The notes under the pieces are model-generated. The model had not been told where the DNA came from. It made no database searches and was given only the letters and a program-made list of their open reading frames with translations. Positions 2,751 to 33,484 of a stretch of 39,487 bases of DNA are shown piece by piece. The stretch's first letter is position 1, and each line of letters starts with the position of its first letter. The translations under genes and the position numbers were made by a program. The stretch is taken from assembly GCA_017444005.1 (NCBI GenBank), contig JAFSXQ010000262.1:1-39487 (forward strand), written 5' to 3'. The stretch comes from Bacteroidaceae bacterium. Lineage in GTDB: Bacteria; Bacteroidota; Bacteroidia; Bacteroidales; Bacteroidaceae.

Positions 2751-3374
2751 TTATAATTCCGTGTATATATCCTGTTGACCCATACGGGTCTTCAGCAGTT
2801 TGGGATTCTCGCCCCGCGTCCACGCGTTCAGTTGTTTACGGGCTGAATAGCGGGTCAGGTTGGCCTGCTCGGCAAACCGTTTCACCGTGGTGTATCCCTC
2901 CTTCAGGCATTCCTTCAAGGCCCCTTCCAGATAGGCATTGTCCGCCATCAACTGCAGCACGTCGGGGGTGTATTCCTTTCGGAAGCCGTGATGGAGCCAT
3001 TGTCCGATTTCCTTGTTCCACCGTTTGCCGGGTTTGTATTCCACACCGTCGAGTACGACGTCACTGTTCCTCACCTCATCGGGGTTGGTCACCTCCCTTA
3101 TCAGTGCCAGTTTGGGGGCGAACGAGCCAAGTGTCGTCTCCACGCGATACCCCTTTGCCATCAGTTCCGAGGCTGCGCGCATGAAGACCCCGAAGACCAG
3201 GGACAGTTCGCCCGACCTCAGTCCATAGCCGTCCCCGCTGCAGAACTCATCGAGTTGTTTCATGTCCACCTTGAAGCCGCCGGCTGGCCTGACATACACG
3301 ATGTTCCGCCCGTCCCTACCCTTTGCTGGCGTAGGATACACTTCGTAGGGCATTCCGTCTTTCTTCCTTGGCAT
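2751..3374 (-). CDS. HU-like (HU_HIG-type) DNA-binding protein
   Basis: The ORF track extends to 3491, but that extension overlaps the end of the upstream gene. The ATG at 3372-3374 gives MPRKKDGMPYEVYPTPAKGRDGRNIVYVRPAGG..., the usual N-terminus of Bacteroidales histone-like DNA-binding proteins. The following ...GELSLVFGVFMRAASELMAKGYRVETTLGSF matches the HU-fold core pattern. Confidence 0.75.
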   Translation of the reverse strand: MPRKKDGMPYEVYPTPAKGRDGRNIVYVRPAGGFKVDMKQLDEFCSGDGYGLRSGELSLVFGVFMRAASELMAKGYRVETTLGSFAPKLALIREVTNPDEVRNSDVVLDGVEYKPGKRWNKEIGQWLHHGFRKEYTPDVLQLMADNAYLEGALKECLKEGYTTVKRFAEQANLTRYSARKQLNAWTRGENPKLLKTRMGQQDIYTEL

Positions 3375-3474
3375 ACGTCGATTTACTATTATTACGGATT
3401 TCAGCACTTGCCTATATCGCATGGGACATAGACAAACGCCTTTGAATATGAGGGTATGGTGAGCGAAAAGTGCC

Positions 3475-3957
3475 TCACAGCCAGCCGCCACCGGAGTTGC
3501 CGGAGGTGGCTGGCTTCACTACGCCTTCGTTCTTGGCCTTGCGCAGCAGGCGGTCGTACTTCAGGAAGACGTGGGCCGAGCCTTCGTAGCCACCGGTAGA
3601 GGACGTGCGGATGTCGCCCAGCACCTCCAGACCTTCGACGTATTCATCGTAGGTGTCGCGCCCAGGCTCCTCGGTGAAGAACTTCATCAGCCACAGGTGC
3701 TGCTTGGGATCGATGTCCTTCGACACAATGGGTTCGTCGGACAATCCCTCCACACCCTCGTACAGGAGTTTCTGCAAGGGGAGTTTCTTCGCGTTGTCGA
3801 GGACGGCGCGCTCGTTGTGACCATAGCACTGAACCAGCAGGATGGCCGTCTCGCCCGACCGTGCGATAAGTTTGGCCGTGCCACGTACATTTTGGGCGCC
3901 GACCAAGGAGGCCGCACAGAGCAGCACGAGGGAGAGGAGTATGGAACAGGGTCTCAT
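3475..3957 (-). CDS. exported protein of unknown function (last gene of the tubulin-like operon)
   Basis: 160-aa ORF with an N-terminal signal peptide (MRPCSILLSLVLLCAASLVGAQN). It starts 9 bp after the stop of the upstream gene. No domain recognised. Confidence 0.7.
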   Translation of the reverse strand: MRPCSILLSLVLLCAASLVGAQNVRGTAKLIARSGETAILLVQCYGHNERAVLDNAKKLPLQKLLYEGVEGLSDEPIVSKDIDPKQHLWLMKFFTEEPGRDTYDEYVEGLEVLGDIRTSSTGGYEGSAHVFLKYDRLLRKAKNEGVVKPATSGNSGGGWL

Positions 3958-3966
3958 CGCGTATGA

Positions 3967-4776
3967 TTAGTTGTTCCAGAAACGTGTCTGGGCACCATGG
4001 TTAACGACGCGCAGTATCTGTTCGGCGTCCATCGCGGGCTTGATCTTGCGACCGCCGGCCGTGCACTTGCACAGCGTCATGTTGCCGCCCACGAGACGGA
4101 TGACCTTCAGTTCGGTCACCTTGTTCCATACGGGCTCGCCGCCGATGTACATGCGCTGGTAGACATCGAGTTGCTGTCCCTCGGCAATGCCCTGGTCACT
4201 GCCCAGGTTGACGTAGACCTCCGTGGCCACCTCGTTCTTGTCCATTTTGTCGATGGCCTTCACGGTACCGATGGCGGGGAATACGTCGTTGGCAAGGGCG
4301 GTGATGTCCTTGCGTACGTCCTCCATGACCTTCTGCATGGCCTCCTCAGAGTTGCCGGCATGGGCCGTCTTCTGGAACGAGCGGCTATAGGCCACCTCGC
4401 CCGTGCGGGCATTGGTGAGGCGGACGGTGTAGGAGAGCATGGCAGCAACGTTGTTCTCGGTGGCGTATGCGACGTTGTCCAACGTGCCGCTCAGGACGTA
4501 GGCAAAGCCCTTCTGCCCGAGCGTCTTCACGCGTTCGTTGACAGCCTCGGGCAGCGTGCCCAGAGTCTTGGAATCCACCACGGTGACACGGCCCAGCGAG
4601 GTGAGGTAGGAAACAACAGCCGAACGCAGGCGCTCAGCCACAGGGGCATTGTCGGCAACCACGGGAGTCACCTGATCCAGGCATACAGCCATCTTCTCGT
4701 CGGTCTCTGCCATGACTGGTGTGCAGAACAGGCAGAGCAGGGAAAGGAGGGTAAAGAGATTCTTTTTCATCTTCAT
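3967..4776 (-). CDS. exported protein, possibly LpoB/CsgG-like fold plus a C-terminal beta domain
   Basis: 269 aa with a signal peptide (MKMKKNLFTLLSLLCLFCTPVMA). The pattern ...RLRSAVVSYLTSLGRVTVVDSKTL...GFAYVLSGTLDNV...YTVRLTNARTGEVAYSRSF resembles LpoB/CsgG/TolB-N-type periplasmic modules. The fold call is a guess. Confidence 0.7.
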   Translation of the reverse strand: MKMKKNLFTLLSLLCLFCTPVMAETDEKMAVCLDQVTPVVADNAPVAERLRSAVVSYLTSLGRVTVVDSKTLGTLPEAVNERVKTLGQKGFAYVLSGTLDNVAYATENNVAAMLSYTVRLTNARTGEVAYSRSFQKTAHAGNSEEAMQKVMEDVRKDITALANDVFPAIGTVKAIDKMDKNEVATEVYVNLGSDQGIAEGQQLDVYQRMYIGGEPVWNKVTELKVIRLVGGNMTLCKCTAGGRKIKPAMDAEQILRVVNHGAQTRFWNN

Positions 4777-4822
4777 ATTTATTATTTCTTATTTATTATT
4801 TATCATTTCGTGGCCACCCCTT

Positions 4823-6109
4823 TTACAGGTCTTGCGCCAGGCGCAGGCCCACGGTGGGAGCCGTCTCGTCGGGCGACATGTAATGGCGGTGATTGTTGCG
4901 CAGCATCAGTCCGCGGTCCTGGTACGAGCCGCCACGCACGATGCGCACGTAGCCCGTCTCCGGCCCCAAGGGGTTGGCCACGTTATCGGCGGGATAGCGG
5001 TCCAGATAGTCCTGGCACCACTCGGCCACATTGCCGTTCATGTCCTGCAGACCGATGCGCGATGCCTTGCGGCTACCGCAGTCGATGGTCTGGCCCGACA
5101 TGTTGGCCACGTTGTCGGGGCTGGGTTCACCGCTGTAGGTGTCGGAGAGATTGGAGTCGCGGCAGTTGGCGGCAAACTCCCACTCGGCCTCGGTGGGCAG
5201 GCGGAAGCGTGTGTTGCAACGTTCGTTCAGCCGGCGGATGAACTCTTGGCAGTCGTCCCACGAGACGTTCTCCACGGGCAGTGTCGCCCCCTTGTGGATG
5301 GAGGGGTTGCTGCCCATGACGGCCTGCCAGAGGGCCTGCGGCACCTCGGTCTTGCCGATGGCATATCCGCGCAGGGTCACCTGGTGCTGAGGCATGTCCA
5401 GGCTGGCTGTGCTCAGGGCGTTAGGCAGGCGGCGGGCCCCCATCATGAACGAGCCCTGCTCGATGCGCACCATCTCGTAACCGATGCCGTCGAGCGAGAA
5501 ACTGCCCTCGGCCTTCATGTTCACGCGGTAGGTCATGGTCTGCCCCACACGAGCATCGACCTGCGCCGTCTCGTCGTTGTAGCCGCGGGCCTTCAGCGTC
5601 AGGGTATGCTTGCCGTCGGTGGTTTTCACCTTGAATGGTGGCGCGCCCGTTGCCTGCTTGGTGCCGTCGAGGTAAAGGTCGGCCTCCCCGACGTTGGTGT
5701 TCACCACCAGTGTGCCCGTGGGCTCGTTGCCCGTCGCAGGCTTTTGCACGACCAGTTTATAGGTGGTCTTGCTGGCAAGTCCCTGGGGGAACTTATCGCG
5801 GATGTTGAACTTCGGTGGAATGAATCCTTTTGCCTTTATTTCCAACCACTTGGCCTCGTTACACATGTACACCCAATAGTCGCCGTTGTGTTGCTCCACC
5901 TCGCCAACGATGTCGCCCTCGAAGGTAACATCCGGCACCGTTATGCGCACGACGACCAGCGGACAGATTTGTTTGTTGGCATCCTTCCGGGGATGGCTGA
6001 CGGCCAGAATCTCACTGGGGTCGGCATCAAACGACGTGACGACCAGTTGCTGTGCGAAAACCAGCAACGGAGAAAGGAGCAAGAGGAAAGAGAGGAACTG
6101 TCTTCTCAT
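4823..6109 (-). CDS. exported PEGA-domain + formylglycine-generating-enzyme-like (SUMF1/FGE-sulfatase family) protein
   Basis: 428 aa with a signal peptide (MRRQFLSFLLLLSPLLVFAQQ). PEGA-like segment: DLYLDGTKQATGAPPFKVKTTDGKHTLTLKARGYNDE. FGE-family motifs: YAIGKTEVPQALWQAVMG, VENVSWDDCQEFIRRLN, FRLPTEAEWEFAA, NGNVAEWCQD, IVRGGSY. Confidence 0.9.
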   Translation of the reverse strand: MRRQFLSFLLLLSPLLVFAQQLVVTSFDADPSEILAVSHPRKDANKQICPLVVVRITVPDVTFEGDIVGEVEQHNGDYWVYMCNEAKWLEIKAKGFIPPKFNIRDKFPQGLASKTTYKLVVQKPATGNEPTGTLVVNTNVGEADLYLDGTKQATGAPPFKVKTTDGKHTLTLKARGYNDETAQVDARVGQTMTYRVNMKAEGSFSLDGIGYEMVRIEQGSFMMGARRLPNALSTASLDMPQHQVTLRGYAIGKTEVPQALWQAVMGSNPSIHKGATLPVENVSWDDCQEFIRRLNERCNTRFRLPTEAEWEFAANCRDSNLSDTYSGEPSPDNVANMSGQTIDCGSRKASRIGLQDMNGNVAEWCQDYLDRYPADNVANPLGPETGYVRIVRGGSYQDRGLMLRNNHRHYMSPDETAPTVGLRLAQDL

Positions 6110-6124
6110 AATCCCGTTCTCATT

Positions 6125-7102
6125 CTAATTGAAATGGAGATTGTCGATATAGTCGAAACCCTTCTGTACATCGGTGTCCTGCGGCTGCCACGTGCGCACA
6201 AGGATTTGGGGGTGTTCCCGGTCCTTGAAGTCCCACAGCAAGATGACAATGCCCTTGTCCTTATACGTGTTGGTTGCCCACTCCTGGTCGAGGACCACTA
6301 CGTAGAAATTAGGCTTGGCGCCGTGACGCTTGATCTTGTAGCCGTCAAACTCCACGTGCACTTCTCCTGTTTTGGGGTTTGTAAATATCTTACGCAAATT
6401 GGCTAAATATTGAGCCTTAGGTTTGGGATCAAACACGACATCGGTCTGCATTGTTCCTGTCTCGCGCTTCACACGGGTCATCACCTTGCCGGTGACTATC
6501 AAGGCATCGTCGCTGAAGATGTCATCCAACATCTTGATATCTTTCCTTTTATAGGCGTTCTTCAGTTGCGTACAGAAACCGATAATCTCCAAGCGCTCGT
6601 CGGCATCACCAACGTCGAAACCCTCCTTTAGGATGCGCGTGTACTGGTGTTTGTCGATGGAGATGTTGAAGTCGATAATCTTGCCACTCAGGTCGAAGTC
6701 GACTTCCACCTCCTGGTTCACATCGTCGGCATAGGCCTCATCGACGGCCTCCATCTCCACGGGGATGTTGCGCACCTGATACTGATAGACGCGGCCTGCA
6801 CGCTTTAGGGAAAGGCCATGTTCCACGATGTCGTCGTCCAGACAGTGGAAACGGGCGTTTGCCCACAGCGAGGTGAGGCTTTGCGAAGCCATATCGCTGA
6901 TGCCGATACCCGTGAAATTGATGTCTGCTTTCTGGCTCGAGGCCTTGTTGATGGCCGTAAGCAGTCGGGAGAGGTTCGTCTCCATGCGCTGCTTCAGCGT
7001 GGCATTGCGGATGCCATCGGAGATTTCCACATTCACCTGATCTTGTGCGGTTGCGCCCCATGCAAACAGGGCAACCAACAAAGTCAATGCAATCTTTCTC
7101 AT
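6125..7102 (-). CDS. exported protein of unknown function (C-terminal half possibly NTF2-like)
   Basis: 325 aa with a signal peptide (MRKIALTLLVALFAWGATAQDQ). It starts 32 bp after the upstream stop. ERLEIIGFCTQLKNAYKRKDIKMLDDIFSDDALIVTG is reminiscent of SnoaL/NTF2-like domains; this is weak. Confidence 0.7.
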   Translation of the reverse strand: MRKIALTLLVALFAWGATAQDQVNVEISDGIRNATLKQRMETNLSRLLTAINKASSQKADINFTGIGISDMASQSLTSLWANARFHCLDDDIVEHGLSLKRAGRVYQYQVRNIPVEMEAVDEAYADDVNQEVEVDFDLSGKIIDFNISIDKHQYTRILKEGFDVGDADERLEIIGFCTQLKNAYKRKDIKMLDDIFSDDALIVTGKVMTRVKRETGTMQTDVVFDPKPKAQYLANLRKIFTNPKTGEVHVEFDGYKIKRHGAKPNFYVVVLDQEWATNTYKDKGIVILLWDFKDREHPQILVRTWQPQDTDVQKGFDYIDNLHFN

Positions 7103-7134
7103 ATCTTATTCTGTTTTTAGTTTATCCTTACTTA

Positions 7135-7902
7135 TTATTTGGCCAACTGAAACCAGATGGCGGTGTTGGCATCGTAGTTGTCCAACGTGTCGGCGGCCTT
7201 TGTGCGCAAGTTCGTGCGCTCTCCGTCGCCCGGACTGAGCACGGTCCGCAGGTTACCCTGTGCATCGCCGACCAGCAGGTAGCAGGCCGCGGGATTGGTG
7301 CAAGCACTCATGTAGCCCGTACGCTTCACACGATACTCGGCCTTCAGGCGGTTGAGCATGGCCTTGCCCTGTGCCAGGGTTTCGCAGTTCAGCAAGTCCT
7401 GGATGACCTGTTCCTGCCACGAGCCGGCAACCGTCTGAGGCTGGGGCTGTGTACGTGGCTTCGGTTCTGCCAGTACGGTCTTCACTTCAGGTTTCGGTGC
7501 AGGTTTCGGTTCTGCCTTCACCGCCGGCTTAGGTTCGGCTTTGGGTTGGGGAGCAGGCGCCGTTGTCGACAGGACATCCGTCTTCGCAATGTAGACAAAG
7601 ACGCGCGTCTGCTGCCCGCGTGGCATCTGCATCCGTTGCAGTCTGTCGGCATTCTTGGCTATCAGTTCACGCTCCTCGTCCGAGAGTTCGTGCTGCTGTT
7701 GAGCATATTCGCCCATGAAACTTATCAAAAGGTCGCGAGCCATCTCAAAAGCCTTCTCGGCGTCGGCATCGGTGGCCTCGGCATAGATGTAACTTTCGTT
7801 ACGCTTGATGTCGTTGATTTCCTTGCTGGTGTTCTGCGCTACAGCCACCGAACTCATCAAGGCAACAACGACCGACATCATCAGTTTTCTTACGTTCATC
7901 AC
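7135..7902 (-). CDS. exported protein with a central Pro/Lys/Glu/Ala-rich spacer
   Basis: 255 aa with a signal peptide (MMNVRKLMMSVVVALMSSVAVAQN). Its ATG overlaps the upstream stop (ATGA at 7899-7902). Central linker: APAPQPKAEPKPAVKAEPKPAPKPEVKTVLAEPKPRTQPQPQ. Confidence 0.75.
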   Translation of the reverse strand: MMNVRKLMMSVVVALMSSVAVAQNTSKEINDIKRNESYIYAEATDADAEKAFEMARDLLISFMGEYAQQQHELSDEERELIAKNADRLQRMQMPRGQQTRVFVYIAKTDVLSTTAPAPQPKAEPKPAVKAEPKPAPKPEVKTVLAEPKPRTQPQPQTVAGSWQEQVIQDLLNCETLAQGKAMLNRLKAEYRVKRTGYMSACTNPAACYLLVGDAQGNLRTVLSPGDGERTNLRTKAADTLDNYDANTAIWFQLAK

Positions 7903-9023
7903 AATTTTATTTCGTCAAACAAATATTGTACCTTTGAGATTTCCACAAAGGCGTTTAGCCGTGCCTGGACCAATCCTTTGCGCTCCGAGAGTGTGAGCAT
8001 GTCGAAGACGACACGCATCGAATGCAGGTAGCCCATGTCGGGATTCCACATAATCAGTTCACACTTCGCCACGCCATCCGTTTCATCGATGAGTCCGAAA
8101 TAGGGTTTGCAGCCATGATCCAGACAGTAGTTAATCCACTGGTTCAAGCGTACCTGCAAGGTATCGTACTTAAAGCCGTACTTCACCATGCGGATTTCGA
8201 GGTCGTAGTCGTTCTCCACCTGCCCCGTAGTCAGCAGATTGGCAACGCTTTCCTTCATCAGGCGGGTGTTGCAGAGCAGGCGCAGGCTATCCCGTTCGTC
8301 CCGTTCATAGTAACTATCCGAATTTATCTGTGGCAGATAAAATTTCTCGCCAGGCAATATGAAGTAACGCCCCTGCCACGTGGTTTTCAGACGGGCAGAG
8401 TCGGGCACCTCAGCCATGCGTGGTTCGGCACTCCACTGGGCGACTTCGGGCAGAAGCCGCCGTTCCCTCTCTTCCATGTCCGTCCCTGCCAGCAGGTTGT
8501 AGTCGATGGGGAAGTTTATGGCGAAGCGTTCCTCGTCGCCCTTCATCCAGTGCACGGTGTATCGCTTGCCATTCAGGTTCTCGACGGAGACGGCCAGTGT
8601 GGTGTCGGCAGCCACCTGATGCAGGGCGTCCATTTTGCCCCCACGGAAGAAGACGCCATCCTCGTCCAGATGCCGGGCCACACTGCGTTCACGTTGCACG
8701 GGAAGGTCGAGGAACAGCGGATAGCGCTCCACGAAATCAAATGCCGGCGAAGACATTGCCTCGCGCAACTGTTCGGAGAACAACGAATAGCCGATGTGCG
8801 TGACCACGCTGTCGGCCACTACCACAGTGACGGGATGGGCCTTGTACTGCAATAATCCGACATAACGTCCTTCGGGCAGGGTGTCCAATTGTGCCTCGGC
8901 CTGCAGGGCAGTCGCCATACGCTGCAAGAGGTCAGTACGATAGCGGTTTCCCGCCATCGCCTGACCTGTCTGTAGCATCGTGAGCACAAGTGCCCACAGG
9001 ATTATGTGGCGTCGCCCCAGCAT
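7899..9023 (-). CDS. exported protein of unknown function
   Basis: 374 aa with a signal peptide (MLGRRHIILWALVLTMLQTGQAMAG). It starts 9 bp after the stop of the Zn-ribbon gene. No domain recognised. Confidence 0.75.
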   Translation of the reverse strand: MLGRRHIILWALVLTMLQTGQAMAGNRYRTDLLQRMATALQAEAQLDTLPEGRYVGLLQYKAHPVTVVVADSVVTHIGYSLFSEQLREAMSSPAFDFVERYPLFLDLPVQRERSVARHLDEDGVFFRGGKMDALHQVAADTTLAVSVENLNGKRYTVHWMKGDEERFAINFPIDYNLLAGTDMEERERRLLPEVAQWSAEPRMAEVPDSARLKTTWQGRYFILPGEKFYLPQINSDSYYERDERDSLRLLCNTRLMKESVANLLTTGQVENDYDLEIRMVKYGFKYDTLQVRLNQWINYCLDHGCKPYFGLIDETDGVAKCELIMWNPDMGYLHSMRVVFDMLTLSERKGLVQARLNAFVEISKVQYLFDEIKL

Positions 9024-9032
9024 CTCTGTTTA

Positions 9033-9896
9033 TCAAAGACCCGACACGAACTTGCGTGTGCCGTCGGCGAAGCGAATTTCGCCCTGGCGCAACTTGCCGT
9101 TCTCAACCTTGGCATTGGCAATCTTGTCACCGGGATTCACGGTAACAGTCTCACCCGAGGCCTTCTTCAGGTCGATGGTGTAGGTCTTGTTGACGGTGAT
9201 CTCACCACCAATACCGCTCTTGTTACCCGATACGGAACCTTTGTAGGTGCCCCAGCCCAGGTTGATGGTATTACTGCCACCGCCACCTGTAACCTCGGCG
9301 CCGACCCATGCAGCATTGATGGCACTCTCCAATTCATAAATCTTAGCAACATCATCGCTCTCTACGGCCTCGCGCAGCGCTGTGAGCAACGTGTTGATGG
9401 CCTCCTTGGCGTCCTTTTTCAGTTTCTTGTCCTTTTCGGTCAACAGTTTCTCGTTGGCAGCCAGTACCGAGTCGGCACGCTCTTTCACGCGAGCCAGTTC
9501 GGCTGCACGCTCTTCGGCACTGCCCTGCAGAGCCTTCTCGGCAGCCAATCGTTGTGCCTCGGCCTCAGCCATAGCAGCCTCGGCTTCCTGGCGCTGTGTA
9601 TCTGCCTCGGCAGCAGCACGCTCGGCTTCCATCTTCTCCTGCTTTGCCTTCTGGTTCGAATCGTAGATGCTGTAGCCGCCATATCCCAGACCGCCCAGCA
9701 CAACAACTGCAGCAGCAATGATGCCGATGAGTTTGCCGTTAGGTTTGCGGCCACCATCTCCGCCCGTGGGTTTACCCCCAAATGGAATAAGAGGCTTACC
9801 ACAATACTCACACACAAAGTTACTCTTCTCCGCTTCCATTATCTCGTCGCAATGTTCACATTCTTCATTGCGACAAATACCTTTCATTTTTGCCAT
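9033..9896 (-). CDS. Zn-ribbon / single-TM / coiled-coil / MORN-like membrane protein
   Basis: The ORF-track start at 9923 is a TTG; ATG at 9894-9896 gives MAKMKGICRNEECEHCDEIMEAEKSNFVCEYCGKP (CX4CX2C...CX2C zinc ribbon). A TM helix follows (LIGIIAAAVVVLGGLGYGGYSIY), then ~110 aa of Ala/Glu/Lys-rich coiled coil. The C-terminal Gly-rich beta repeats (GWGTYKGSVSGNKSGIGGEITV; ENGKLRQGEIRFADGTRKFV) look MORN-like. Confidence 0.8.
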   Translation of the reverse strand: MAKMKGICRNEECEHCDEIMEAEKSNFVCEYCGKPLIPFGGKPTGGDGGRKPNGKLIGIIAAAVVVLGGLGYGGYSIYDSNQKAKQEKMEAERAAAEADTQRQEAEAAMAEAEAQRLAAEKALQGSAEERAAELARVKERADSVLAANEKLLTEKDKKLKKDAKEAINTLLTALREAVESDDVAKIYELESAINAAWVGAEVTGGGGSNTINLGWGTYKGSVSGNKSGIGGEITVNKTYTIDLKKASGETVTVNPGDKIANAKVENGKLRQGEIRFADGTRKFVSGL

Positions 9897-10097
9897 AATT
9901 TGTTTCCTATTTACTAATATCAATTTATTCGTATCATATCACGACTTTTGAGATGCGAGAGGCGTGGACAACAGAGGGGCCCTACAATTGGGACATACGA
10001 AATCGTCAGGTGATACTTCAACCACGATACAAAACAATTCGCATGAATCATTTATACACTTACCTCTTACCAGTTTTCGCATCATCACACTATTCAA

Positions 10098-13000
10098 TTA
10101 AAGGTCTTTAAGTTCAGCATTTATAATCTCCACTGCTAATGCCTTATACTCGTTATACACAGGGCTAAACTGGTTGCCTTCGCACATGGTAGGCAGTATG
10201 AGTTGGTTGACAACGCCTCCTAACGCCTTGCGCACCTCAGCCTTCTGGTCATTGCTCCGTGCCTGTTTCGTCAGTTCCTTAGCCACCTGTGCCTTCAGTT
10301 GCTGCAGTTTTCTATAGTCTTGCGCCAATGCATTCAGGCAACCTTCAAAGTTCTTACCAATCTTCACCCAACTGTCACCAAACACATCATCGGGGATATT
10401 CATCGCATAGAAGCGTTCACCCGTGGTGGGATCCTGCTGTGGTTGGATTTGATTGAGTGCAAAGGCCAGCATGAGAGGTTTCTTGGCATCAGCAAAGTTC
10501 TCCTTTGAGTCTTTCTCGAACAAAGCGGGCAGAGCCTCCTTGAAACTCTCTGTATGCAACACCATACGGTTCAGATCCTTCTCGGGAGCAGCCAGCAGTT
10601 GGTCGTATTTCTGCTTCAGTGTAGTCAGGTTTGCCAAATAACGAAGAGGGAAACCGGAGTTGGCACACACGATTACAATCTGGTTAGTCTTGTAGTTCTC
10701 CGAGAGGTCTGCATCAGGTGACGGAACAAAGCCAGGTATCGTGTTTTGGAACACCTGGAGAAGACGATTCTTGAACTCAAGTGTAGCACCCTCTGCTCTA
10801 GGCATTGCAACCTGTACCATGCTCTGCATAACAGCAGGTGTGCCAGCAATGACCTTACTGCGTTCCTCTGCATTGAACTGTACATAGGACTGCGCCCATC
10901 CAACAGCCTGTTTGACAAAGGCTTCCATCTTCTCCTCCGTGTTCAGTTCGTTCTTCAATTTATCGAGAATATTCACGCCCACCATCTTCATCATCGGGTC
11001 GTTCTTTGCCGAATCTTCCATTGCCATACGGGCATTCTTGGTACAAACATCGAGTACAATGTCTATAGCCGTCTCGTAATCGGTATTTGCATATAAGTTG
11101 GCAAAGGTTCGTTCTCCTTCTTCTCCCAATCCAGCAATCATGCGAGTACGGATTTCCGCAGCATTGCCACTCTGGTTCTCAAAATTAATAGAGTATTGTT
11201 TGGCTAGTGCATGCACGCGTTCGGGGTCATACTTCTTGACGATGCCATCCTCTTGGGCTTCACTTGTCCGGCACTTGTTTCCTGCCTGTTTCGTAACCTC
11301 TGTAAGAATGTCGTCCATTTCCTTCTTCATCGCCTGTATGCCCTCAATCATACTACCCATTTCTATGATGAGTTCCTGAAGAAGCAAAGTCGCATACTTG
11401 TATGCATCAATGCGTGTGGCTGTGATATAATAGTTACACTTAGCTGTCTTGTACGTATTGAATATCTGTGTCGGCGACACAAAGGGATTCAGATTGGGCC
11501 ACCCAAGTTTTCCCCACTCGCGGTTGGCATCATCGATAGCGACCTGCTGTCCGTCTCTCTCTTCCTCTAACCTAGCAATTTGCTGCTTGAAAGCGGTGAT
11601 GCGATCCTGACAATCCTTGCGCATAAGTTGGGCATACTTTTCAATCTGCAAAATACTCTTGCCCTCCTTGCCTCCTGCTGCCCACTGGTCGAAGAGTATT
11701 TTCTCGATGTGCCTACGCAGATGACGGGCATAGCCCTTGAGTTCTTGTTGTTGTATTTCGTAGAATTTCTTCACACCATGAGCACGGAAACTATTCTCAT
11801 AGTAATCGTCCACTAACTTGGTGAACTCAGCCAGCCACAGTTTCTTCTCATACTGACTCTGCACCAATGCGGCATCCTGTTGTGTTCGAGTTTCCCACGT
11901 GGTGGAGAAGTCCTTCCACTTCTTAGTATTCGCACTGTCGATGATGGGTTTGGCCAAAGTCAAATAAGAATTCGAGAGTTTGTATTGCTCGCGATTCTTC
12001 ACATTCTTTATCTCATCGGCATATCCCGAACCAACTTCCTCGATGGAGCATTCGCCATAGCCTACGCCCTCCTGCCAGAGGTTGTAGGTAAGTTGGCGTG
12101 TGGCCTGTATGGCATAACTATAGGACATGTATTCATCTATCTCCGTTTCGGGGTACTCGATGCGTGTAATACCGAAAGAAAGGAACTTGCGGCTACGATT
12201 GTTCTCCCCATTCAAGTCCTGTTCTGGAGCAGCCCCGTCATTCTCACAGCCCACCAGGCGAGACATCTTACCTGCACTACCATTCATATTGGCTACGACA
12301 ATAGTCTGGAACATAAAGTCTGCCACAGAAGCAGGTAACTGTGTCCCCAAATCCAGAATTTTGCCAGCCTCATTTACATTGCTATAGATATAGGCGGCCT
12401 CGAATGATTCACCTTCCAACAAACGTTTCACCTCCTGCGTATAAACATCTTTTTCTCCTGTGACATCTAAGGGGTGATATTTACCTACGCTTACAGCATT
12501 CAGTTCCTGCAAAGCGGCATATCCGTTGGCCTGATAGAAACCGCTGTCGTGGTCGCTATAGACCATAACGCTCTCGGGAATGTACAGGAAAAGGCGAATT
12601 TTGAAGGCTTTGGTGCCTTCATTATATGGATATTTCTTACGTATTTGGGATAGAACATCTATGATGGAGCCCGAACCCGTACCACCAGCAAGACCTGCAC
12701 AGATATGGAATGTGACATCCTGATCGTTCGAGTCCTGCTGCAAACGAGTCACAGCACTATGGATGACATTGTTCAGATTATCGCGACTAACGGAGTCACC
12801 CAGGTTGTTGGCAACGAGCACACGGCCCAATCTACGACGCTGGCCGCCGATACCAGCCGAAATCAAAGGCCCCATGTGTCGGTCCATCAGTTGCTTGTCA
12901 GTATCGCTGATAAAGGACTGTAAACCAGGATACATACTTAAGTTTTGAAGCACGTTGGAATTAATGCCGTTGATATTCACCTTCTGTGCTTCACCCAGAT

Positions 13001-13193
13001 GGACACTCTTTCCTATCACCTTCCAGCCTGTACGATCGTTCAGATCTGCTGGCGAAGAGTCCACATAAACATAATCCAAGTGAACACCACGACCAGGGTC
13101 GTTGCTGCGAAACTCTTCGTACACTCTTTTACGCAGTTCGCGGAGCACCTTGCCTCCCGTACCGCCTAATCCGATAATCAAATGGTTTGACAT
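10098..13193 (-). CDS. giant tubulin/FtsZ-superfamily GTPase (tubulin-like, Tubulin_2/FtsZl-type) with a ~650-aa C-terminal extension
   Basis: 1031 aa.
- N-terminal G-loop: IIGLGGTGGK (aa 6-15).
- YVDSSPADL, comparable to the FtsZ NTD segment.
- T3-like: SAGIGGQRRRLGR.
- Canonical T4 tubulin signature: CAGLAGGTGSGSIIDV (aa 165-180, nt 12669-12695 for GLAGGTGSG).
- No signal peptide or TM segment.
- The remainder is helical-looking with no domain I recognise. Confidence 0.85.
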   Translation of the reverse strand: MSNHLIIGLGGTGGKVLRELRKRVYEEFRSNDPGRGVHLDYVYVDSSPADLNDRTGWKVIGKSVHLGEAQKVNINGINSNVLQNLSMYPGLQSFISDTDKQLMDRHMGPLISAGIGGQRRRLGRVLVANNLGDSVSRDNLNNVIHSAVTRLQQDSNDQDVTFHICAGLAGGTGSGSIIDVLSQIRKKYPYNEGTKAFKIRLFLYIPESVMVYSDHDSGFYQANGYAALQELNAVSVGKYHPLDVTGEKDVYTQEVKRLLEGESFEAAYIYSNVNEAGKILDLGTQLPASVADFMFQTIVVANMNGSAGKMSRLVGCENDGAAPEQDLNGENNRSRKFLSFGITRIEYPETEIDEYMSYSYAIQATRQLTYNLWQEGVGYGECSIEEVGSGYADEIKNVKNREQYKLSNSYLTLAKPIIDSANTKKWKDFSTTWETRTQQDAALVQSQYEKKLWLAEFTKLVDDYYENSFRAHGVKKFYEIQQQELKGYARHLRRHIEKILFDQWAAGGKEGKSILQIEKYAQLMRKDCQDRITAFKQQIARLEEERDGQQVAIDDANREWGKLGWPNLNPFVSPTQIFNTYKTAKCNYYITATRIDAYKYATLLLQELIIEMGSMIEGIQAMKKEMDDILTEVTKQAGNKCRTSEAQEDGIVKKYDPERVHALAKQYSINFENQSGNAAEIRTRMIAGLGEEGERTFANLYANTDYETAIDIVLDVCTKNARMAMEDSAKNDPMMKMVGVNILDKLKNELNTEEKMEAFVKQAVGWAQSYVQFNAEERSKVIAGTPAVMQSMVQVAMPRAEGATLEFKNRLLQVFQNTIPGFVPSPDADLSENYKTNQIVIVCANSGFPLRYLANLTTLKQKYDQLLAAPEKDLNRMVLHTESFKEALPALFEKDSKENFADAKKPLMLAFALNQIQPQQDPTTGERFYAMNIPDDVFGDSWVKIGKNFEGCLNALAQDYRKLQQLKAQVAKELTKQARSNDQKAEVRKALGGVVNQLILPTMCEGNQFSPVYNEYKALAVEIINAELKDL

Positions 13194-13228
13194 AGTATTT
13201 GTTCGTTTAAGTTTTGTTGATTCACGTT

Positions 13229-13810
13229 TCAGAATACATCTTCAGCCCTTGAGAACGTAGACACACGGCCTGAGGAGTATCCGCCCACGCCTATACCAAA
13301 ATGCTCACAAGTCATGTAGGCCCCTACCCCACCTGCTATCAGGAACAGCAGGGCCCAGAAGATGCGCCAATGGATGAACGAGGCAATGCTGTCTCGCACT
13401 GAGGCGGCTACCATGTGGGGGACCTGCTCCACGGTATGACCGGCCAGGGCAGCACCGTCGATGTAGGAGGCCAGGAAGGGATAGTTACCCGTGAGGGACG
13501 AGACCAGTTCGCTGGCGTCGCTCTGGCTGAGATTGTCCTTCAGTATGCCCGTCTGCGATGACAGCAGACTGGCGGCCTGAGCCTCTACGTCGTTCACCAG
13601 ACTGCGCACGCGCAAGGCACCGCAGAAGAGGGTTGTCTGAATGAAAAGCAGAATGAAAGCCGCGCCAAGGGCCACGTAGCCTACAGGGGCAAGACGGCGG
13701 TCAGGTGAAAGGACACGCACCAAGAGGAAGGCAAGAAGTACCCCCCCCACTGCCATCAGCAAGCCCCAGGCGAGGCTTGAGAAGGAATATGATACCAGTG
13801 TCCACCACAT
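13229..13810 (-). CDS. small polytopic membrane protein (first gene of the tubulin-like operon)
   Basis: 193 aa with at least three hydrophobic helices (LAWGLLMAVGGVLLAFLLV; VGYVALGAAFILLFIQTTLFCGAL; IFWALLFLIAGGVGAYM). Its stop lies 35 bp upstream of the tubulin-like start. No family recognised. Confidence 0.7.
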   Translation of the reverse strand: MWWTLVSYSFSSLAWGLLMAVGGVLLAFLLVRVLSPDRRLAPVGYVALGAAFILLFIQTTLFCGALRVRSLVNDVEAQAASLLSSQTGILKDNLSQSDASELVSSLTGNYPFLASYIDGAALAGHTVEQVPHMVAASVRDSIASFIHWRIFWALLFLIAGGVGAYMTCEHFGIGVGGYSSGRVSTFSRAEDVF

Positions 13811-13850
13811 AACAACTACAAATTTGGCCTTTTACGGCATAGTTTGCCTA

Positions 13851-13858
13851 CAAAGTTA
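13851..13858 (-). promoter_or_regulatory. candidate Bacteroidota -7 promoter box (TAACTTTG) for the tubulin-like operon
   Basis: The minus strand reads TAACTTTG, matching the TAnnTTTG consensus. It lies about 41 nt upstream of the ATG at 13810 and just downstream of the terminator of the preceding operon. Confidence 0.4.
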
Positions 13859-14000: not shown

Positions 14001-14049
14001 GAAAAAGAGACCCGCAGCCTGAGAGATGGGCTGCGGGTCTCTTTTTTTG
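14001..14049 (-). terminator. rho-independent (bidirectional-looking) terminator after the PUL operon
   Basis: Perfect 14-bp stem AGAGACCCGCAGCC (14006-14019) / GGCTGCGGGTCTCT (14029-14042) with a 9-nt loop. It is flanked by an A-run on the left and a T7 run on the right, and sits 21 nt after the SusD stop at 14070. Confidence 0.75.
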
Positions 14050-14069
14050 TATCCGGGGTGGAGAGGACA

Positions 14070-16325: not shown

Positions 16326-16374
16326 AATTCCTTGTTCTTTATTATGAATTATGCATTATGAATTATGCATTGAA

Positions 16375-19626: not shown

Positions 19627-19632
19627 GTCGTA

Positions 19633-21441: not shown

Positions 21442-21494
21442 AAACTTTGAATTACGAAATGCGAAATACGGAATTTCAATTTTCAATTTTCAAT

Positions 21495-25497: not shown

Positions 25498-25515
25498 ATC
25501 GTTGTTCTCCTTTCT

Positions 25516-31875: not shown

Positions 31876-32127
31876 GCGTTTTTTTACGAACCAGCCAAAT
31901 TATTGTTAATTATTTTTAATTATCGTGTGAAAAAGGGATGAATCAAGGCCCCCCACGACGTCGTCATGCAGCCAGACGGCACGAAGCCGCCAGCCCGGCC
32001 GCAGCAACGAGGAAATATCCTTACAACCAACCGCCCCACCCTGTCTCTTTCAAGCCCAAGAACCGCTGGTATTTGCCGCCGAGTCGCCACCATCCTTATT
32101 ATCAACACATTACAAACCTCGCAACTA

Positions 32128-32232
32128 ACATTACTAATCTTTTGCCAATAAGATTACTAATCTTTCACCGATAAGATTACTAATCTTCCGGCCATAAGAT
32201 TACTAATCTTCCGCCCGCAAGATTAGTAACGG
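32128..32232. repeat. array of 4-5 copies of the 13-bp palindrome AGATTAcTAATCT at a strict 23-bp period
   Basis: ATAAGATTACTAATCTT occurs identically at 32148-32164, 32171-32187 and 32194-32210. A degenerate copy (ACATTACTAATCTT) lies 23 bp to the left. Another (CAAGATTAGTAAC) lies 23 bp to the right. The core AGATTA-N-TAATCT is a perfect inverted repeat. Confidence 0.9.
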
Positions 32233-32235
32233 CAC

Positions 32236-32268
32236 AAAAAAAGCCTCCCGAACCGGCGTTCGGAAGGC
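32236..32268 (-). terminator. rho-independent terminator of panB
   Basis: On the minus strand: GCCTTCCGAAC-GCCG-GTTCGGGAGGC (11-bp stem with one G-U pair) followed by TTTTTTT. It begins 20 nt after the panB stop. Confidence 0.8.
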
Positions 32269-33352: not shown

Positions 33353-33426
33353 CAAGTTCTTCTGCTCTTTTCCTGCCGTTTTCTCTCAAAAGCGGTTAAA
33401 TTTTTATCTCTTTCCGAAGATTCTTT
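33353..33426 (+). repeat. copy 1 of a ~74-bp direct repeat (upstream module of the DUF3800 gene)
   Basis: CAAGTTCTTCTGCTCTTTTCCTGCCGTTTTCTCTCAAAAGCGGTTAAATTTTTATCTCTTTCCGAAGATTCTTT aligns without gaps to 34369-34442 at about 89% identity by hand. A TAnnTTTG box (TACTTTTG, 33460-33467) follows 34 bp later. Confidence 0.85.
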
Positions 33427-33484
33427 GTGATTCGTTAATGCAATCTGCTAAGAATTGTGTACTTTTGCAACTCAATATCACAGA

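Follow-up and report, generated by a model that had tools for sequence, protein, structure and literature searches.

The window analyzed here is a stretch of 39,487 nucleotides (contig JAFSXQ010000262.1 of assembly GCA_017444005.1, Bacteroidaceae bacterium), in which nine open reading frames (ORFs) follow one another on the minus strand. Gene 1 (13229-13810) encodes a predicted inner-membrane protein of 193 aa with three transmembrane (TM) segments (ORF and hydropathy), gene 2 (10098-13193) a 1031-aa cytoplasmic GTPase assigned to FtsZl1/Tubulin_2 by Pfam and AF2/Foldseek, and gene 3 (9033-9896) a putative bitopic adaptor of 287 aa, aligned as Zn ribbon, TM segment, stalk and MORN-like end. 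Genes 4-9 encode predicted exported proteins with N-terminal signal-like hydrophobic segments: gene 4 (7899-9023; 374 aa, alpha+beta multi-domain in its AF2 model), gene 5 (7135-7902; 255 aa, with a Pro/Lys/Ala-rich, TonB-like linker), gene 6 (6125-7102; 325 aa, C-terminal NTF2-like domain by family-level Pfam searches), gene 7 (4823-6109; 428 aa, PEGA and FGE-sulfatase fold by Pfam), gene 8 (3967-4776; 269 aa) and gene 9 (3475-3957; 160 aa). By hydropathy, TM-like segments were seen three times in gene 1 and once in gene 3. All coordinates and spacers of the nine ORFs (35, 201, 9, -4, 32, 15, 46 and 9 bp, genes 1-9 in order) agreed with a preliminary description of this DNA; what that description listed as a 201-bp spacer holds a tenth gene on the same strand, gene 2b (9939-10085), a predicted 48-aa ORF recognized by a Zn-ribbon HMM and consisting of a Zn ribbon only. 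Gene 5 may start at GTG 7902 or ATG 7899, the latter giving a 1-nt overlap with gene 4 instead of 4.

A candidate Bacteroidota -7-type promoter box, TAACTTTG (13851-13858, minus strand), is located 41 nt upstream of the gene 1 ATG and is a plausible promoter element of that gene, judged from its sequence and position. The motif TAnnTTTG is only weakly enriched in the window (17 matches, 9.9 expected; 17 reached in 4 of 100 shuffles), and the box, described earlier as single, is accompanied by two more minus-strand matches, both intragenic (9815 and 11180). The 5' boundary of the cassette is marked by the terminator hairpin of the upstream SusC/SusD/fasciclin operon (14001-14049, minus strand), present as previously described, with an A-run, a 12-bp GC-rich stem, a 9-nt loop and a T-run, 21 nt past the stop of the SusD-like gene. 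The hairpin scan does not list it because the 9-nt loop is over the limit of the scan. A sub-threshold Rfam match to Thr_leader lies at the same place. Just downstream of the cassette, the window contains VirE-like and HU-HIG genes.

Regarding gene 2, PF13809 (Tubulin_2) covers residues 5-364 (E=2.2e-50; 172 bits, cut-off 27), which bears out the earlier assignment to the divergent Tubulin_2/FtsZl-1 type and not to dcw-type FtsZ. The motif GGTGG was found at 10-14 and the tubulin signature GGTGSG, as reported before, at 170-175. Invariant across homologs of 24-72% identity are G10, G11, G13, G14, G167, G170-G173, G175 and E317; the glycines correspond to T1 and T4, and E317 to the loop after the core helix. 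The tubulin-like region of the protein (approximately 1-370) is followed by a helical region, which includes a long hairpin of helices (514-641), and, C-terminally, by an alpha/beta domain (approximately 790-946) in which FPLR and LHTE motifs are conserved. The best Foldseek matches of the AF2 model (pLDDT 75) were gamma-, alpha- and beta-tubulin, OdinTubulin and TubZ (probability 1.0, approximately 375-400 columns; target-normalized TM-score 0.33-0.39), so that a tubulin fold of the N-terminal part, postulated earlier, was recovered in the model; this tubulin-like model looks moderate in quality, and the activation domain past the putative T7 loop appears reduced. Membership in Tubulin_2/FtsZl1, with intact GTP-binding motifs and a tubulin-like modeled N-terminal domain, is thereby supported. 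Makarova and Koonin (PMC2875224) found T6-H7 of FtsZl1 not alignable and considered filament formation possibly absent. Among PDB sequences and in the searchable literature, no experimental study and no solved structure of an FtsZl1 protein was found. The C-terminal helical part gave weak Foldseek matches to ClyA-type pore-forming toxins (probability 0.3-0.9). Hydropathy revealed no hydrophobic or amphipathic membrane-binding segment in gene 2, and the Trp-rich tip of the hairpin is conserved only in the alignment of close (Prevotella-type) homologs, not family-wide.

The gene 3 product comprises a Cys4 Zn ribbon (C8, C13, C29, C32), a TM segment (56-76), a coiled-coil stalk and a C-terminal MORN-like domain of approximately 85 aa; the predicted topology places the Zn ribbon in the cytoplasm and the stalk in the periplasm. 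In the orthologue alignment the four cysteines are invariant and the C-terminal YxGxxxxGxxxGxG repeats conserved; in the orthologue from B. finegoldii, Big_2 and, faintly, MORN were matched. MORN repeats in eukaryotes are associated with membranes or lipids. In nearly all loci whose DNA continues past the GTPase gene, a Zn-ribbon and TM module is encoded immediately next; these include distant loci devoid of genes 1 and 4-6, in which the periplasmic part is PBP plus OmpA or TPR, and a Paraburkholderia replicon. The predicted product of gene 2b is soluble and paralogous to the N-terminus of gene 3 (Zn-ribbon HMM E=1.3e-9), and a comparable 45-aa ORF occupies this position in locus L047. The predicted TM segments of gene 1 lie at approximately 13-31, 46-66 and 146-168, with a loop of approximately 75 aa; the gene immediately precedes that for the GTPase in 62 of 94 loci, shows a dN/dS of 0.06-0.19 and yielded no match in Pfam, NCBIfam or PADLOC.

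Among the predicted exported proteins, gene 4 was modeled by AF2 (pLDDT 90.7, pTM 0.85), and Foldseek against PDB gave nothing at E<=1e-3 and no whole-chain match; BFVD (structure), Pfam and PDB sequences yielded no match either. Its best partial matches were NTF2-like domains (90-130 columns, E=0.03-0.1), a weak indication from the model that it may contain at least one NTF2-like module. Lipids or other hydrophobic molecules are frequent ligands of the NTF2 fold. Gene 5 is divided into an N-terminal domain, a linker (approximately 115-160) and a C-terminal domain; its family and domain matches were limited to low-complexity TonB and PARP, and profiles of the N-terminal domain showed weak similarity to gene 9 (hhalign 93%, 64 columns) and the t250 tail protein (83%). 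Gene 6, the best conserved of the exported partners, has 15 invariant columns and an N-terminal domain without a family; of 30 orthologues, 23 matched DUF4440, 15 Cds6_C NTF2-like and 9 SnoaL_3. The number of loci with genes 4, 5 and 6 was 54, 54 and 51, respectively. Gene 7 matched PEGA (E=4e-8) and FGE-sulfatase (E=1e-35) in Pfam, and scored 69.6 bits with the GldK/PorK model (cut-off 350). The FGE catalytic Cys pair is absent, with no Cys after RGGSY, and the fold is C-type-lectin-like; no diversity-generating retroelement repeats were found near the gene. Proteins of the PEGA/FGE type occur in 22 loci as 1-4 tandem copies. Relatives of genes 8 and 9 were found in four loci only (L004, L006, L021 and L027), and gene 8 had no significant Pfam family match. 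The statement that only the PEGA and FGE protein has a recognizable domain holds for single-sequence Pfam searches, but not at family or structure level (genes 6, 4 and 3). No activity could be identified in the periplasmic proteins. The exported proteins displayed no convincing lipobox, terminal aromatic beta-signal or T9SS C-terminal domain; the sequence evidence for the cassette extends to the periplasm only, with no identifiable outer-membrane component, and the trans-envelope set reaching the outer membrane proposed earlier was not recovered.

Genes 1-2-3-4-5-6 were colinear in 14 of 14 genome loci with enough DNA, and the same order occurs in approximately 50 loci overall, at GTPase identities down to 30%. 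The expected linkage of the GTPase with the membrane protein, the Zn-ribbon/TM/MORN protein and three exported proteins was thus seen in approximately 50 independent loci, and since these have different flanks, a chance neighborhood is excluded. Downstream, either PEGA/FGE-type genes (22 loci; the full gene 7-9 set in 5) or a t530+t250 pair (30 loci) are found. The conserved unit is therefore genes 1-6, followed by a variable tail of either of two kinds, of which genes 7-9 represent one; this narrows the nine-gene operon of the preliminary description. Named sources of cassette loci are Prevotella, Palleniella and Bacteroides finegoldii; GTPase homologs were also found in Dysgonomonas and Tannerella, and a gene 4 homolog in a Marinilabiliaceae MAG. 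In B. finegoldii the orthologous cassette lies between ksgA/mgtE and rsfS/ftsH, that is, among housekeeping genes, so a link to mobile remnants is not a general feature of the family. Flanks differ even among fairly close relatives; 136 flank proteins carried 173 Pfam families, none recurring more than 4 times, and revealed no recurrent defense neighborhood. No relatives of the cassette were detected in 2.9 million viral contigs or 50,697 phage records, and the plasmid collection gave a single match, a 1.09-Mb replicon.

The dN/dS of cassette genes in close pairs was 0.02-0.27; this purifying selection indicates real genes and not chance ORFs. Gene 2 is the most constrained (dN/dS 0.02-0.05; median identity 72%, versus 28-42% for its partners, which evolve 3-8 times faster), and constraint of this strength is typical of filament-forming proteins. 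The identity of the gene 3 Zn ribbon followed that of gene 2 (r=0.73) and not that of genes 4-6 (r=0.00-0.11), whereas the MORN end followed genes 4-6 (r=0.76-0.78) and not gene 2 (r=0.01). Genes 4-6 were correlated with one another (rho 0.61-0.78), and gene 1, though adjacent, only weakly with gene 2 (rho 0.25). The cassette thus comprises two co-varying modules with the junction inside gene 3; with regard to the earlier suggestion of coupling through two inner-membrane proteins, the evidence points to gene 3, which tracks both modules, rather than to gene 1. Exchange of modules is exemplified by L031 and L032, whose gene 6 is 90% and gene 2 only 52% identical. That the Zn ribbon co-varies with gene 2 might stem from joint transfer of neighboring DNA instead of protein contact. 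The GTPase/Zn-ribbon segment is compositionally foreign in the window (GC3 0.4-0.55, host approximately 0.83); the low-GC3 tract begins at the 3' end of gene 1 and continues into gene 3 as far as its Zn-ribbon/TM part, and gene 2b has the lowest value in the locus (0.41). The accessory status suggested earlier is consistent with this composition and the mosaic history, but its tie to a mobile remnant does not extend to the family.

We tentatively interpret the locus as a membrane-tethered scaffold or switch of the tubulin family coupled to a periplasmic protein set, i.e. a device spanning two compartments that are linked by a single bitopic protein, with a probability of roughly 45%. The cytoplasmic gene 2 product would bind GTP and probably self-assemble at the inner face of the membrane, where the Cys4 Zn ribbon of gene 3 would dock it; the free 48-aa Zn-ribbon paralogue and the 3-TM gene 1 protein are possible modulators. 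Gene 3 would cross the membrane once and, through a stalk of variable length, present a MORN-like domain that may hold or position the products of genes 4, 5 and 6 (NTF2-like and linker proteins) as an assembly in the periplasm. The variable tail, here PEGA plus FGE-fold, gene 8 and gene 9, would supply non-enzymatic binding proteins decorating this assembly. The assembly state of gene 2 would thereby be coupled to the organization of a periplasmic or cell-wall-proximal complex, much as cytoplasmic filaments are coupled to periplasmic machinery in MreB-RodZ and FtsZ-ZipA/FtsN; we infer the direction of information flow and the output, which would be a process of the envelope distinct from division.

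A biological-conflict (immune-like) system with a tubulin-containing, GTPase-centric theme would likewise show partners that evolve fast, tails that vary, swapped modules and a foreign composition; this is the main rival, which we consider unlikely though deserving of weight. The exported NTF2-like, PEGA, FGE/C-lectin and MORN proteins would then detect, on the periplasmic side, an invader or damage to the envelope; gene 3 would pass the signal across the membrane, and assembly of the GTPase would act as a threshold switch or effector (e.g., growth block or membrane perturbation). A related theme is found in the tubulin-linked systems of Kaur, Burroughs, Iyer and Aravind 2020 (PMC7159879): their GTPase components have TM helices and, at the N-terminus, Zn ribbons, the domains outside the membrane are of the PEGA, beta-sandwich or NTF2 type, and a constant core is combined with highly variable components. 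The 3-8-fold faster partners, the tandem PEGA/FGE paralogues, the exchange of modules among lineages, the VirE/HU-HIG genes adjoining the foreign GTPase segment, the changing flanks and the weak ClyA-type matches all point the same way. Against this, no recognizable effector (nuclease, peptidase, TIR domain, pore-former), no DO-GTPase, vWA or FNIII component and no real PADLOC match was found; all partners have a gene-wide dN/dS far under 1, gene 7 has no retroelement repeats nearby, the flanks show no consistent defense-island context, and the six-gene order persists to 30% GTPase identity, with the B. finegoldii copy among housekeeping genes. In line with the earlier account, no characterized system in PADLOC, NCBIfam, PDB sequences or the searchable literature matches the cluster.

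Less probable still is a membrane-remodeling, lipid-handling or vesicle-biogenesis machine, in which the GTPase and hairpin would deform the inner membrane like dynamin-like proteins and the periplasmic proteins with NTF2-like modules would transport hydrophobic cargo in the manner of MlaC, itself an NTF2-like shuttle for lipids. The build of gene 2, in which a long helical hairpin and a helical bundle come after the GTPase part, NTF2-like modules in two exported partners and the MORN repeats of gene 3 agree with it, as does the same general prediction for FtsZl1, made from other neighborhoods (PMC2875224); but gene 2 has no membrane-binding segment, the Trp-rich tip is confined to close homologs, the NTF2-like assignment of gene 4 is weak, and the cassette contains no transporter, lipid enzyme or outer-membrane component. 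TubZ among the structural matches and the VirE-like and HU-HIG genes downstream would suit TubZ-/PhuZ-like segregation or positioning of the DNA of a mobile element; this is very improbable, given conserved partners that are membrane and exported proteins, no TubR-like DNA-binding adaptor or centromere-like iterons beside the genes, and the near absence of relatives from viral, phage and plasmid collections. Equally improbable are mere neighbors without a shared function, in view of the order conserved amid different flanks. For a family that is so far known from computational work only, the proposed tubulin-family scaffold or switch belongs to a cassette that is conserved in gut Bacteroidia and widespread.

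Judged from its sequence, the 1031-aa product of gene 2, the second of nine minus-strand ORFs running from 13229-13810 (gene 1) down to 3475-3957 (gene 9), is a member of FtsZl1, the group defined by Makarova and Koonin in 2010 (Biol Direct 5:33; PMC2875224) and covered in Pfam by Tubulin_2 (PF13809). Residues 5-364 matched profile positions 1-354 (of 356) of PF13809 with 172.4 bits (E=2.2e-50; cut-off 27 bits), and the tubulin signature claimed for this protein in the preliminary description, GGTGSG, was found at 170-175, within the loop T4 (AGLAGGTGSG, 166-175); GGTGG is present at 10-14, within the loop T1 (GLGGTGG, 8-14). The glycines of T1 and T4, Q118, R120, N223, E317 and R851 are among the residues invariant in 42 full-length relatives of 24-72% identity. 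An AlphaFold2 model built from 34 orthologues (mean pLDDT 75, moderate) places E317 in a loop past a putative core helix; conservation and model together make it a candidate T7-type catalytic residue. The best Foldseek matches of the model in the PDB were gamma-, alpha- and beta-tubulin, OdinTubulin and TubZ, all with a probability of 1.0 and alignments of 373-404 columns (E=8e-4 to 6e-2); the target-normalised TM-scores were just 0.33-0.39. Since tubulins and TubZ are the top matches at this probability, the N-terminus is predicted, from a model of moderate quality, to adopt the tubulin/FtsZ fold proposed for it. Past residue ~400 the modelled chain is helical, with helices at 429-767 (including a hairpin, 514-561/574-641), followed by an alpha/beta domain (~790-946) and terminal helices. 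Foldseek matches of the C-terminal half to the Rad50 coiled coil and ClyA-type toxins were weak and non-specific, and the C-terminal domain had no match in PDB sequences or Pfam. A search of PDB sequences with gene 2 gave nothing significant and found no solved structure for the family. Division FtsZ is ~350-450 aa long, has an FtsZ_C domain and is encoded in the dcw cluster with ftsA/ftsQ. Gene 2 was ruled out as division FtsZ by its 1031 aa, its score against PF00091 (21 bits, below the 33-bit cut-off), the lack of a Pfam match to FtsZ_C and the lack of dcw neighbours.

Regarding distribution, 1734 database proteins were related to gene 2 at E<=1e-5; with clustering at 50%, 1153 representative clusters were obtained (324 at E<=1e-30). 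The best 120 of the 1734 were all ~1030 aa in length and 58-80% identical, and full-length relatives (~1000-1060 aa) reached down to 27% identity. Named sources were Prevotella, Palleniella, Bacteroides finegoldii, Dysgonomonas, Tannerella and Dysgonomonadaceae; a gene 4 homologue was found in a Marinilabiliaceae MAG. Linkage was assessed in 14 genome loci, 79 metagenome loci and the B. finegoldii locus (numbered with the prefix L below) using iterated profiles, one per partner. The order 1-2-3-4-5-6 was colinear in all loci with enough DNA, down to ~30% GTPase identity (L075, L086, L057, L078/79, L056, L064, L055, L050 and L040-44). Because genes 1-6 are colinear and genes 7-9 variable, conserved linkage holds for six genes and not for nine, the last three lying in a tail of which two alternative forms exist. 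The earlier interpretation of a GTPase coupled to a partner set is thus kept in part: the core comprises six genes instead of nine, and of the two inner-membrane proteins proposed as couplers one, the product of gene 3, is a clear candidate. The flanks vary among loci, with 136 flank proteins matching 173 Pfam families and a maximum recurrence of 4; the cassette of B. finegoldii has ksgA, mgtE and DUF349 as neighbours at one end and rsfS, ftsH and cdsA at the opposite end.

The N-terminus of gene 3 is a Cys4 Zn ribbon with invariant C8, C13, C29 and C32 in the alignment, followed by one TM helix, and the protein ends in two MORN-like repeats that span its last ~85 residues. Linking the TM helix to the C-terminal domain is a stalk that is variable across Bacteroidia, being made of Pro/Ala-rich linkers, a coiled coil (in the window) or one to two Big_2 domains. 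In nearly all loci that extend past the GTPase gene, a Zn-ribbon plus TM gene comes immediately 3' of it, L084 being the one clear exception, and the Zn-ribbon/TM module is also kept in ~20 distant loci without genes 1 and 4-6. The periplasmic part of the distant adaptors consists of a solute-binding-protein fold and an OmpA peptidoglycan-binding domain in L068, L071, L087 and L089, and of TPR in L076. The sole match in the plasmid collection, a 1.09-Mb Paraburkholderia replicon (GTPase 26.5% identity), has an adjoining Zn-ribbon/TM gene whose C-terminal part is TPR-like by eye. With few exceptions, the Zn-ribbon/TM adaptor is thus the constant partner of the GTPase wherever downstream DNA is available.

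The coordinates and spacings previously listed for the nine minus-strand ORFs were exact, but the 201-bp 'spacer' between genes 2 and 3 contains a minus-strand ORF of 48 aa (9939-10085), which starts 12 nt past the gene 2 stop, encodes a Cys-rich Zn ribbon alone and matches the profile of the gene 3 N-terminus (E=1.3e-9); a 45-aa counterpart is found at the equivalent position in L047. A structured RNA in this gap was rejected, as the folding z-score was -0.5, no Rfam match was obtained and the small ORF is located there. Genes 2 and 3 are also widely spaced in L005, L007, L010 and L045 (gap of ~317 nt); in L005 this gap contains an 86-aa ORF with no match to the Zn-ribbon profile.

The membrane and signal layout was as described before, with three TM-like segments in gene 1, one in gene 3 and signal-like N-termini in genes 4-9. 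Profiles of genes 4, 5 and 6 gave nothing significant against PDB sequences. The model of gene 4 is confident (pLDDT 90.7, pTM 0.85); Foldseek gave no match over the whole chain in PDB or BFVD, and at best partial ones to NTF2-like domains (E=0.03-0.1), and a Pfam scan of the gene 4 orthologues gave no match. In gene 5 an N-terminal and a C-terminal domain are joined by a TonB-like Pro-rich linker; the N-terminal one resembles, at the profile level, the N-domains of gene 9 and of the ~250-aa tail protein described below. The C-terminus of gene 6 is NTF2-like (DUF4440 in 23 and Cds6_C in 15 of 30 orthologues). Pfam recognised no enzyme signature and no T9SS C-terminal domain in the exported proteins, and neither a lipoprotein Cys (genes 4-7) nor a terminal beta-signal was seen in the sequences, so that the outer-membrane part of the protein set predicted earlier is unsupported; the evidence for the exported set extends to the periplasm, not to the outer membrane.

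Gene 7 combines, as had been noted, PEGA with an FGE-sulfatase fold (Pfam). The catalytic Cys pair of FGE sits after the RGGS motif; a catalytic FGE was ruled out for gene 7, whose sequence reads RGGSYQDRGLMLRNNHRHY, with no Cys. A non-catalytic FGE-sulfatase (C-type-lectin-like) fold is also found in GldK/PorK and GldJ, lipoproteins of T9SS and gliding, where it is structural in the Bacteroidota envelope, and the best NCBIfam match of gene 7 was GldK (TIGR03525, E=3e-19, 69.6 bits vs a 350-bit cut-off). An assignment as T9SS PorK/GldK was ruled out by the score below cut-off, the lack of a lipobox Cys and the lack of PorL/PorM/PorN neighbours; gene 7 differs from GldK/PorK also in its added PEGA domain and as a member of the variable tail, absent from most loci. 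A DGR near this FGE-fold gene was rejected, since no repeat of at least 30 nt in the 39.5-kb window involves it. Among 20 window proteins (ORFs up to ~34.3 kb) none had a Pfam match to RT, and a search of the loci with an RT motif expression gave one match alone, in an unrelated distant locus.

Regarding the tails, a pair of proteins of ~530 aa and ~250 aa occurs in 30 loci, including Bacteroides, and PEGA/FGE-type proteins in one to four tandem copies in 22 loci. Relatives of genes 8 and 9 are confined to L004, L006, L021 and L027. Cassette members show lineage-specific duplications and fusions. Two copies of gene 6 are present in L037 and L046, three to four PEGA/FGE paralogues in L017, L018 and L032, and enlarged or extra gene 1-like proteins (366-441 aa) in L021, L026, L078 and L079. 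In L001, which has the closest GTPase relative of the window, the cassette ends in the 530+250 tail, and next to it come genes for a trypsin-like peptidase and an Mrp/ParA-type P-loop ATPase (11479-13665).

Gene 2 evolves slowly compared with its fast-evolving partners. In the window and the genome loci, the median pairwise identity was 72% for gene 2 vs 28-42% for the partners. In close pairs dN/dS was 0.02-0.05 vs 0.08-0.27, and in some of them dS of gene 2 was 2-4 times below that of genes 1, 4 and 6. Partner identity was almost independent of GTPase identity. When gene 3 was split into its Zn-ribbon and MORN ends, the Zn ribbon showed a correlation with gene 2 (r=0.73, rho=0.69) but none with genes 4-6 (r=0.00-0.11). 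For the MORN end it was the reverse, with a correlation to genes 4-6 (r=0.76-0.78) and none to gene 2 (r=0.01). Genes 4-6 correlated among themselves (rho=0.61-0.78), and gene 1 only weakly with the adjacent gene 2 (rho=0.25). Between L031 and the L012 group (L012/L014/L017/L018/L032), gene 6 is 86-90% and gene 4 61-74% identical, gene 2 only 52%; between L019 and L057 the values are 75% for gene 6 and 33% for gene 2. For gene 2 of the window the nearest locus is L001 (80%), and for its genes 4-6 it is L021 (46, 40 and 54%), a locus that shares the gene 7-8-9 tail. As near-identical periplasmic modules are found with very different GTPases, these cross-clade matches indicate an exchange of modules between lineages. 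Faster evolution of the partners together with saturation is insufficient as the cause of the flat identity curves because of the cross-clade matches and the domain-specific correlations.

Base composition in the window follows the same division. In host genes (PUL, panB, VirE-like) GC3 is 0.81-0.86, in genes 7-9 0.79-0.82 and in genes 4-6 ~0.70; it drops to 0.49-0.58 in gene 2 and further to 0.41 (small ORF) and 0.38 (Zn-ribbon codons), and rises again along gene 3, up to 0.72. The tract at 9660-13330, which extends from the 3' end of gene 1 into the Zn-ribbon/TM part of gene 3, is compositionally foreign (GC3 0.38-0.58 vs 0.69-0.82 in genes 4-9), as if the GTPase/Zn-ribbon module alone had recently been replaced. 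Taken together, the correlations, the cross-clade matches, GC3 and dS say that gene 2 plus the Zn ribbon and the MORN end plus genes 4-6 are separate co-inherited units which recombine at the gene 3 stalk, and that the window carries a recently imported GTPase/Zn-ribbon unit. Part of the co-variation pattern could come from co-transfer of adjacent DNA; gene 1, equally adjacent, tracks gene 2 weakly, which argues that adjacency is not the whole explanation.

Upstream of gene 1, the box TAACTTTG at 13851-13858 and the hairpin at 14001-14049 reported before are both present. The promoter-box motif is barely enriched (17 occurrences vs 9.9 expected in the window), with two further minus-strand copies inside genes, and no intrinsic-terminator-like site stands out within the cluster. 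An Rfam Thr_leader match at 14001-14109 was below threshold (32 vs 55 bits) and corresponds to the terminator hairpin. The cassette is flanked downstream by an HU-HIG gene and a VirE/VapE-like gene and upstream by a SusC/SusD/fasciclin PUL. The HU-HIG ORF (2751-3491) overlaps gene 9 only with a GTG start at 3491; its likely start is ATG 3374 (MPRKKDGMPYEVY...), 100 nt past gene 9. This ORF was rejected as a tenth operon member on account of the 100-nt gap and because no HU-HIG gene follows the cassette in L004, the one further locus covered for its downstream ORFs; it is probably a separate unit. The VirE/VapE-like gene (241-2364) encodes a BT4734-like N-domain and VapE, and a 50-nt inverted repeat, 80% complementary, lies around it (203-252 and 2651-2700). 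In the large PUL-like block (14070-31799, minus strand), three large fasciclin-domain proteins (617, 712 and 960 aa) are interspersed with two SusC/SusD pairs; multi-fasciclin proteins are an uncommon PUL accessory. Five tandem 23-nt units (32103-32240, consensus about TAAGATTACTAATCTTNCNCCNA) with internal inverted symmetry resemble an array of protein-binding sites; on one side of them is the start of the upstream fasciclin-domain gene (ORF 28917-31799), on the other the 3' end of panB. A 73-nt direct repeat (33353-33425 and 34368-34440, 88% identical) lies around a low-GC segment (GC 0.45-0.46) with a DUF3800 gene (33455-34255) inside; this segment looks like a small inserted or duplicated element.

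Among computationally known systems, the FtsZl1 family is matched by gene 2 in its GTPase domain with GGTGSG, coiled-coil middle, helical C-terminus and length (~1000 aa); the family is likewise encoded with membrane-associated proteins and coexists with division FtsZ instead of replacing it. The neighbourhoods described in 2010 comprise vWA proteins, Ser/Thr kinases, a diverged P-loop GTPase, OmpA-like proteins and the families B1-B9 (PMC2875224), whereas none of these is present in the window. Pfam gave no match to vWA, Pkinase or P-loop GTPase domains in ten proteins scanned, a pattern search found neither a MIDAS motif nor, in any partner protein, Walker A, and two Walker A pattern matches inside gene 2 are without P-loop family support. 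An OmpA-type protein, absent from the window, occurs in L068, L071, L087 and L089 fused to the Zn-ribbon/TM adaptor. 'Bacteroides capillosus' is now placed outside Bacteroidota. It was also among the FtsZl1 examples of 2010, the only true Bacteroides one being a 913-aa protein of B. caccae flanked by a 535-aa protein and a Cys protease (PMC2875224), a neighbourhood that differs from the window cassette. A constant Zn-ribbon/TM partner, a six-gene Bacteroidia cassette or a two-module structure was not found in the 2010 description (PMC2875224); Tubulin_2 proteins appear in a 2023 review of the superfamily just as a divergent outgroup (PMC9871819), and no link of tubulin-like proteins to Bacteroides function was found in the searchable literature, where PF13809 turned up in just two papers. 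The cassette is filed as a new version of the FtsZl1 membrane-associated systems.

The most likely reading, with a probability of roughly 0.45, is a membrane-tethered tubulin-family scaffold or switch coupled to a periplasmic assembly. The Zn ribbon of gene 3 would dock the GTPase at the membrane, and the docked GTPase would be coupled to the periplasmic proteins by a design like that of MreB-RodZ. The likeness to MreB-RodZ and FtsZ-ZipA/FtsN is one of design only: in these, a conserved NTPase polymer in the cytoplasm is attached to a bitopic protein through the latter's small cytoplasmic domain, and the fast-evolving periplasmic part of this protein touches envelope machinery. Gene 3 has no sequence or fold kinship to RodZ, ZipA or FtsN, the cassette is without a peptidoglycan synthase or hydrolase, and the polymer of gene 2 is putative. 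A role in lipids or vesicles is unlikely. A membrane-remodelling role has been predicted for FtsZl1, from the vWA, kinase, GTPase and OmpA neighbourhoods that the window lacks (PMC2875224). A partition system or a chance neighbourhood is highly improbable. TubZ/TubR/tubC and phage PhuZ are also divergent tubulin-superfamily GTPases outside division, with structural matches by Foldseek; however, TubZ and PhuZ are ~400-480 aa long, plasmid- or phage-borne and accompanied by a DNA-binding adaptor, whereas gene 2 is 1031 aa long, chromosomal, linked in colinear order to membrane and exported partners and absent from the phage and viral collections searched. TubZRC-type partition was rejected, as Pfam found no DNA-binding domain in genes 1-9, no iterons are nearby and no phage or viral match was obtained. 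Searches of 2.9 million viral contigs and 50,697 phage records gave no relatives, and phage or plasmid carriage was rejected on these nil results and the single 1.09-Mb replicon.

The main rival, an immune-like conflict system with periplasmic sensors, is considered doubtful. Kaur, Burroughs, Iyer and Aravind (2020, eLife 9:e52696; PMC7159879) reinterpreted tubulin-containing neighbourhoods as DO-GTPase/GAP1 conflict systems, in which the GTPases carry Zn ribbons and TM helices with PEGA/NTF2/beta-sandwich ectodomains, and reported them in Firmicutes, Actinobacteria, Planctomycetes, Verrucomicrobia and Chloroflexi, not Bacteroidia. The GAP1-N2 DO-GTPase systems resemble the cassette in a tubulin with a coiled-coil/helical tail, in Zn-ribbon/TM components and in a constant core with variable parts, and their theme is present in the Zn ribbon and TM of gene 3, Big_2 in its orthologues, PEGA in gene 7 and the NTF2-like genes 4 and 6. 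However, the defining TRAFAC-clade DO-GTPase, vWA and FNIII are without a counterpart in the cassette (Pfam and motif search), and the Zn ribbon sits here on a protein without an NTPase domain, whereas in those systems it sits on GTPases. For GAP1 (GAP1-N2, -M and -C domains) the comparison was with the published description, and none of the cassette proteins resembled it in size or in its cytoplasmic three-domain architecture. The overlap in Zn-ribbon/TM and PEGA/NTF2 parts is a shared theme, with membership not established. PADLOC and NCBIfam scans of all ten proteins returned just coiled-coil or low-complexity noise. Defence-type matches among the flank proteins were sporadic only, and a defence island as general context was rejected because the flanks have no recurrent family. 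A more elaborate proposal for gut Bacteroidia, judged unlikely, is a hitherto unrecognised tubulin-based transmembrane signalling or immune device with a swappable periplasmic sensor, a universal Zn-ribbon plug and a GTPase assembly, in which the signal may run in either direction and the plug would be reused across phyla. Its sensor module would consist of the MORN end of gene 3, genes 4-6 and the variable lectin-like proteins; an envelope insult or invader would be detected there, triggering assembly of the highly conserved FtsZl1 GTPase in the cytoplasm, and in other phyla the Zn-ribbon/FtsZl1 plug would be combined with OmpA or TPR ectodomains.

Within the tubulin/FtsZ superfamily, FtsZl1 is the branch that has diverged most, and we know of no tested function or solved structure for it fifteen years past its computational description. 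The group is now given a concrete anatomy, with a constant Zn-ribbon/TM adaptor, a six-gene core and a cytoplasmic/periplasmic split within one protein. Bacteroides and Prevotella-group bacteria make up the named sources, some of them from mouse gut (Palleniella) and sheep colon, and some Bacteroides species are genetically tractable. If the GTPase polymerises, the cassette would represent a new wiring of a tubulin-family cytoskeletal element to the cell envelope; if it is a conflict system, a tubulin-family protein with periplasmic sensors would enter bacterial immunity. Either outcome would bear on the role of FtsZl1 proteins.
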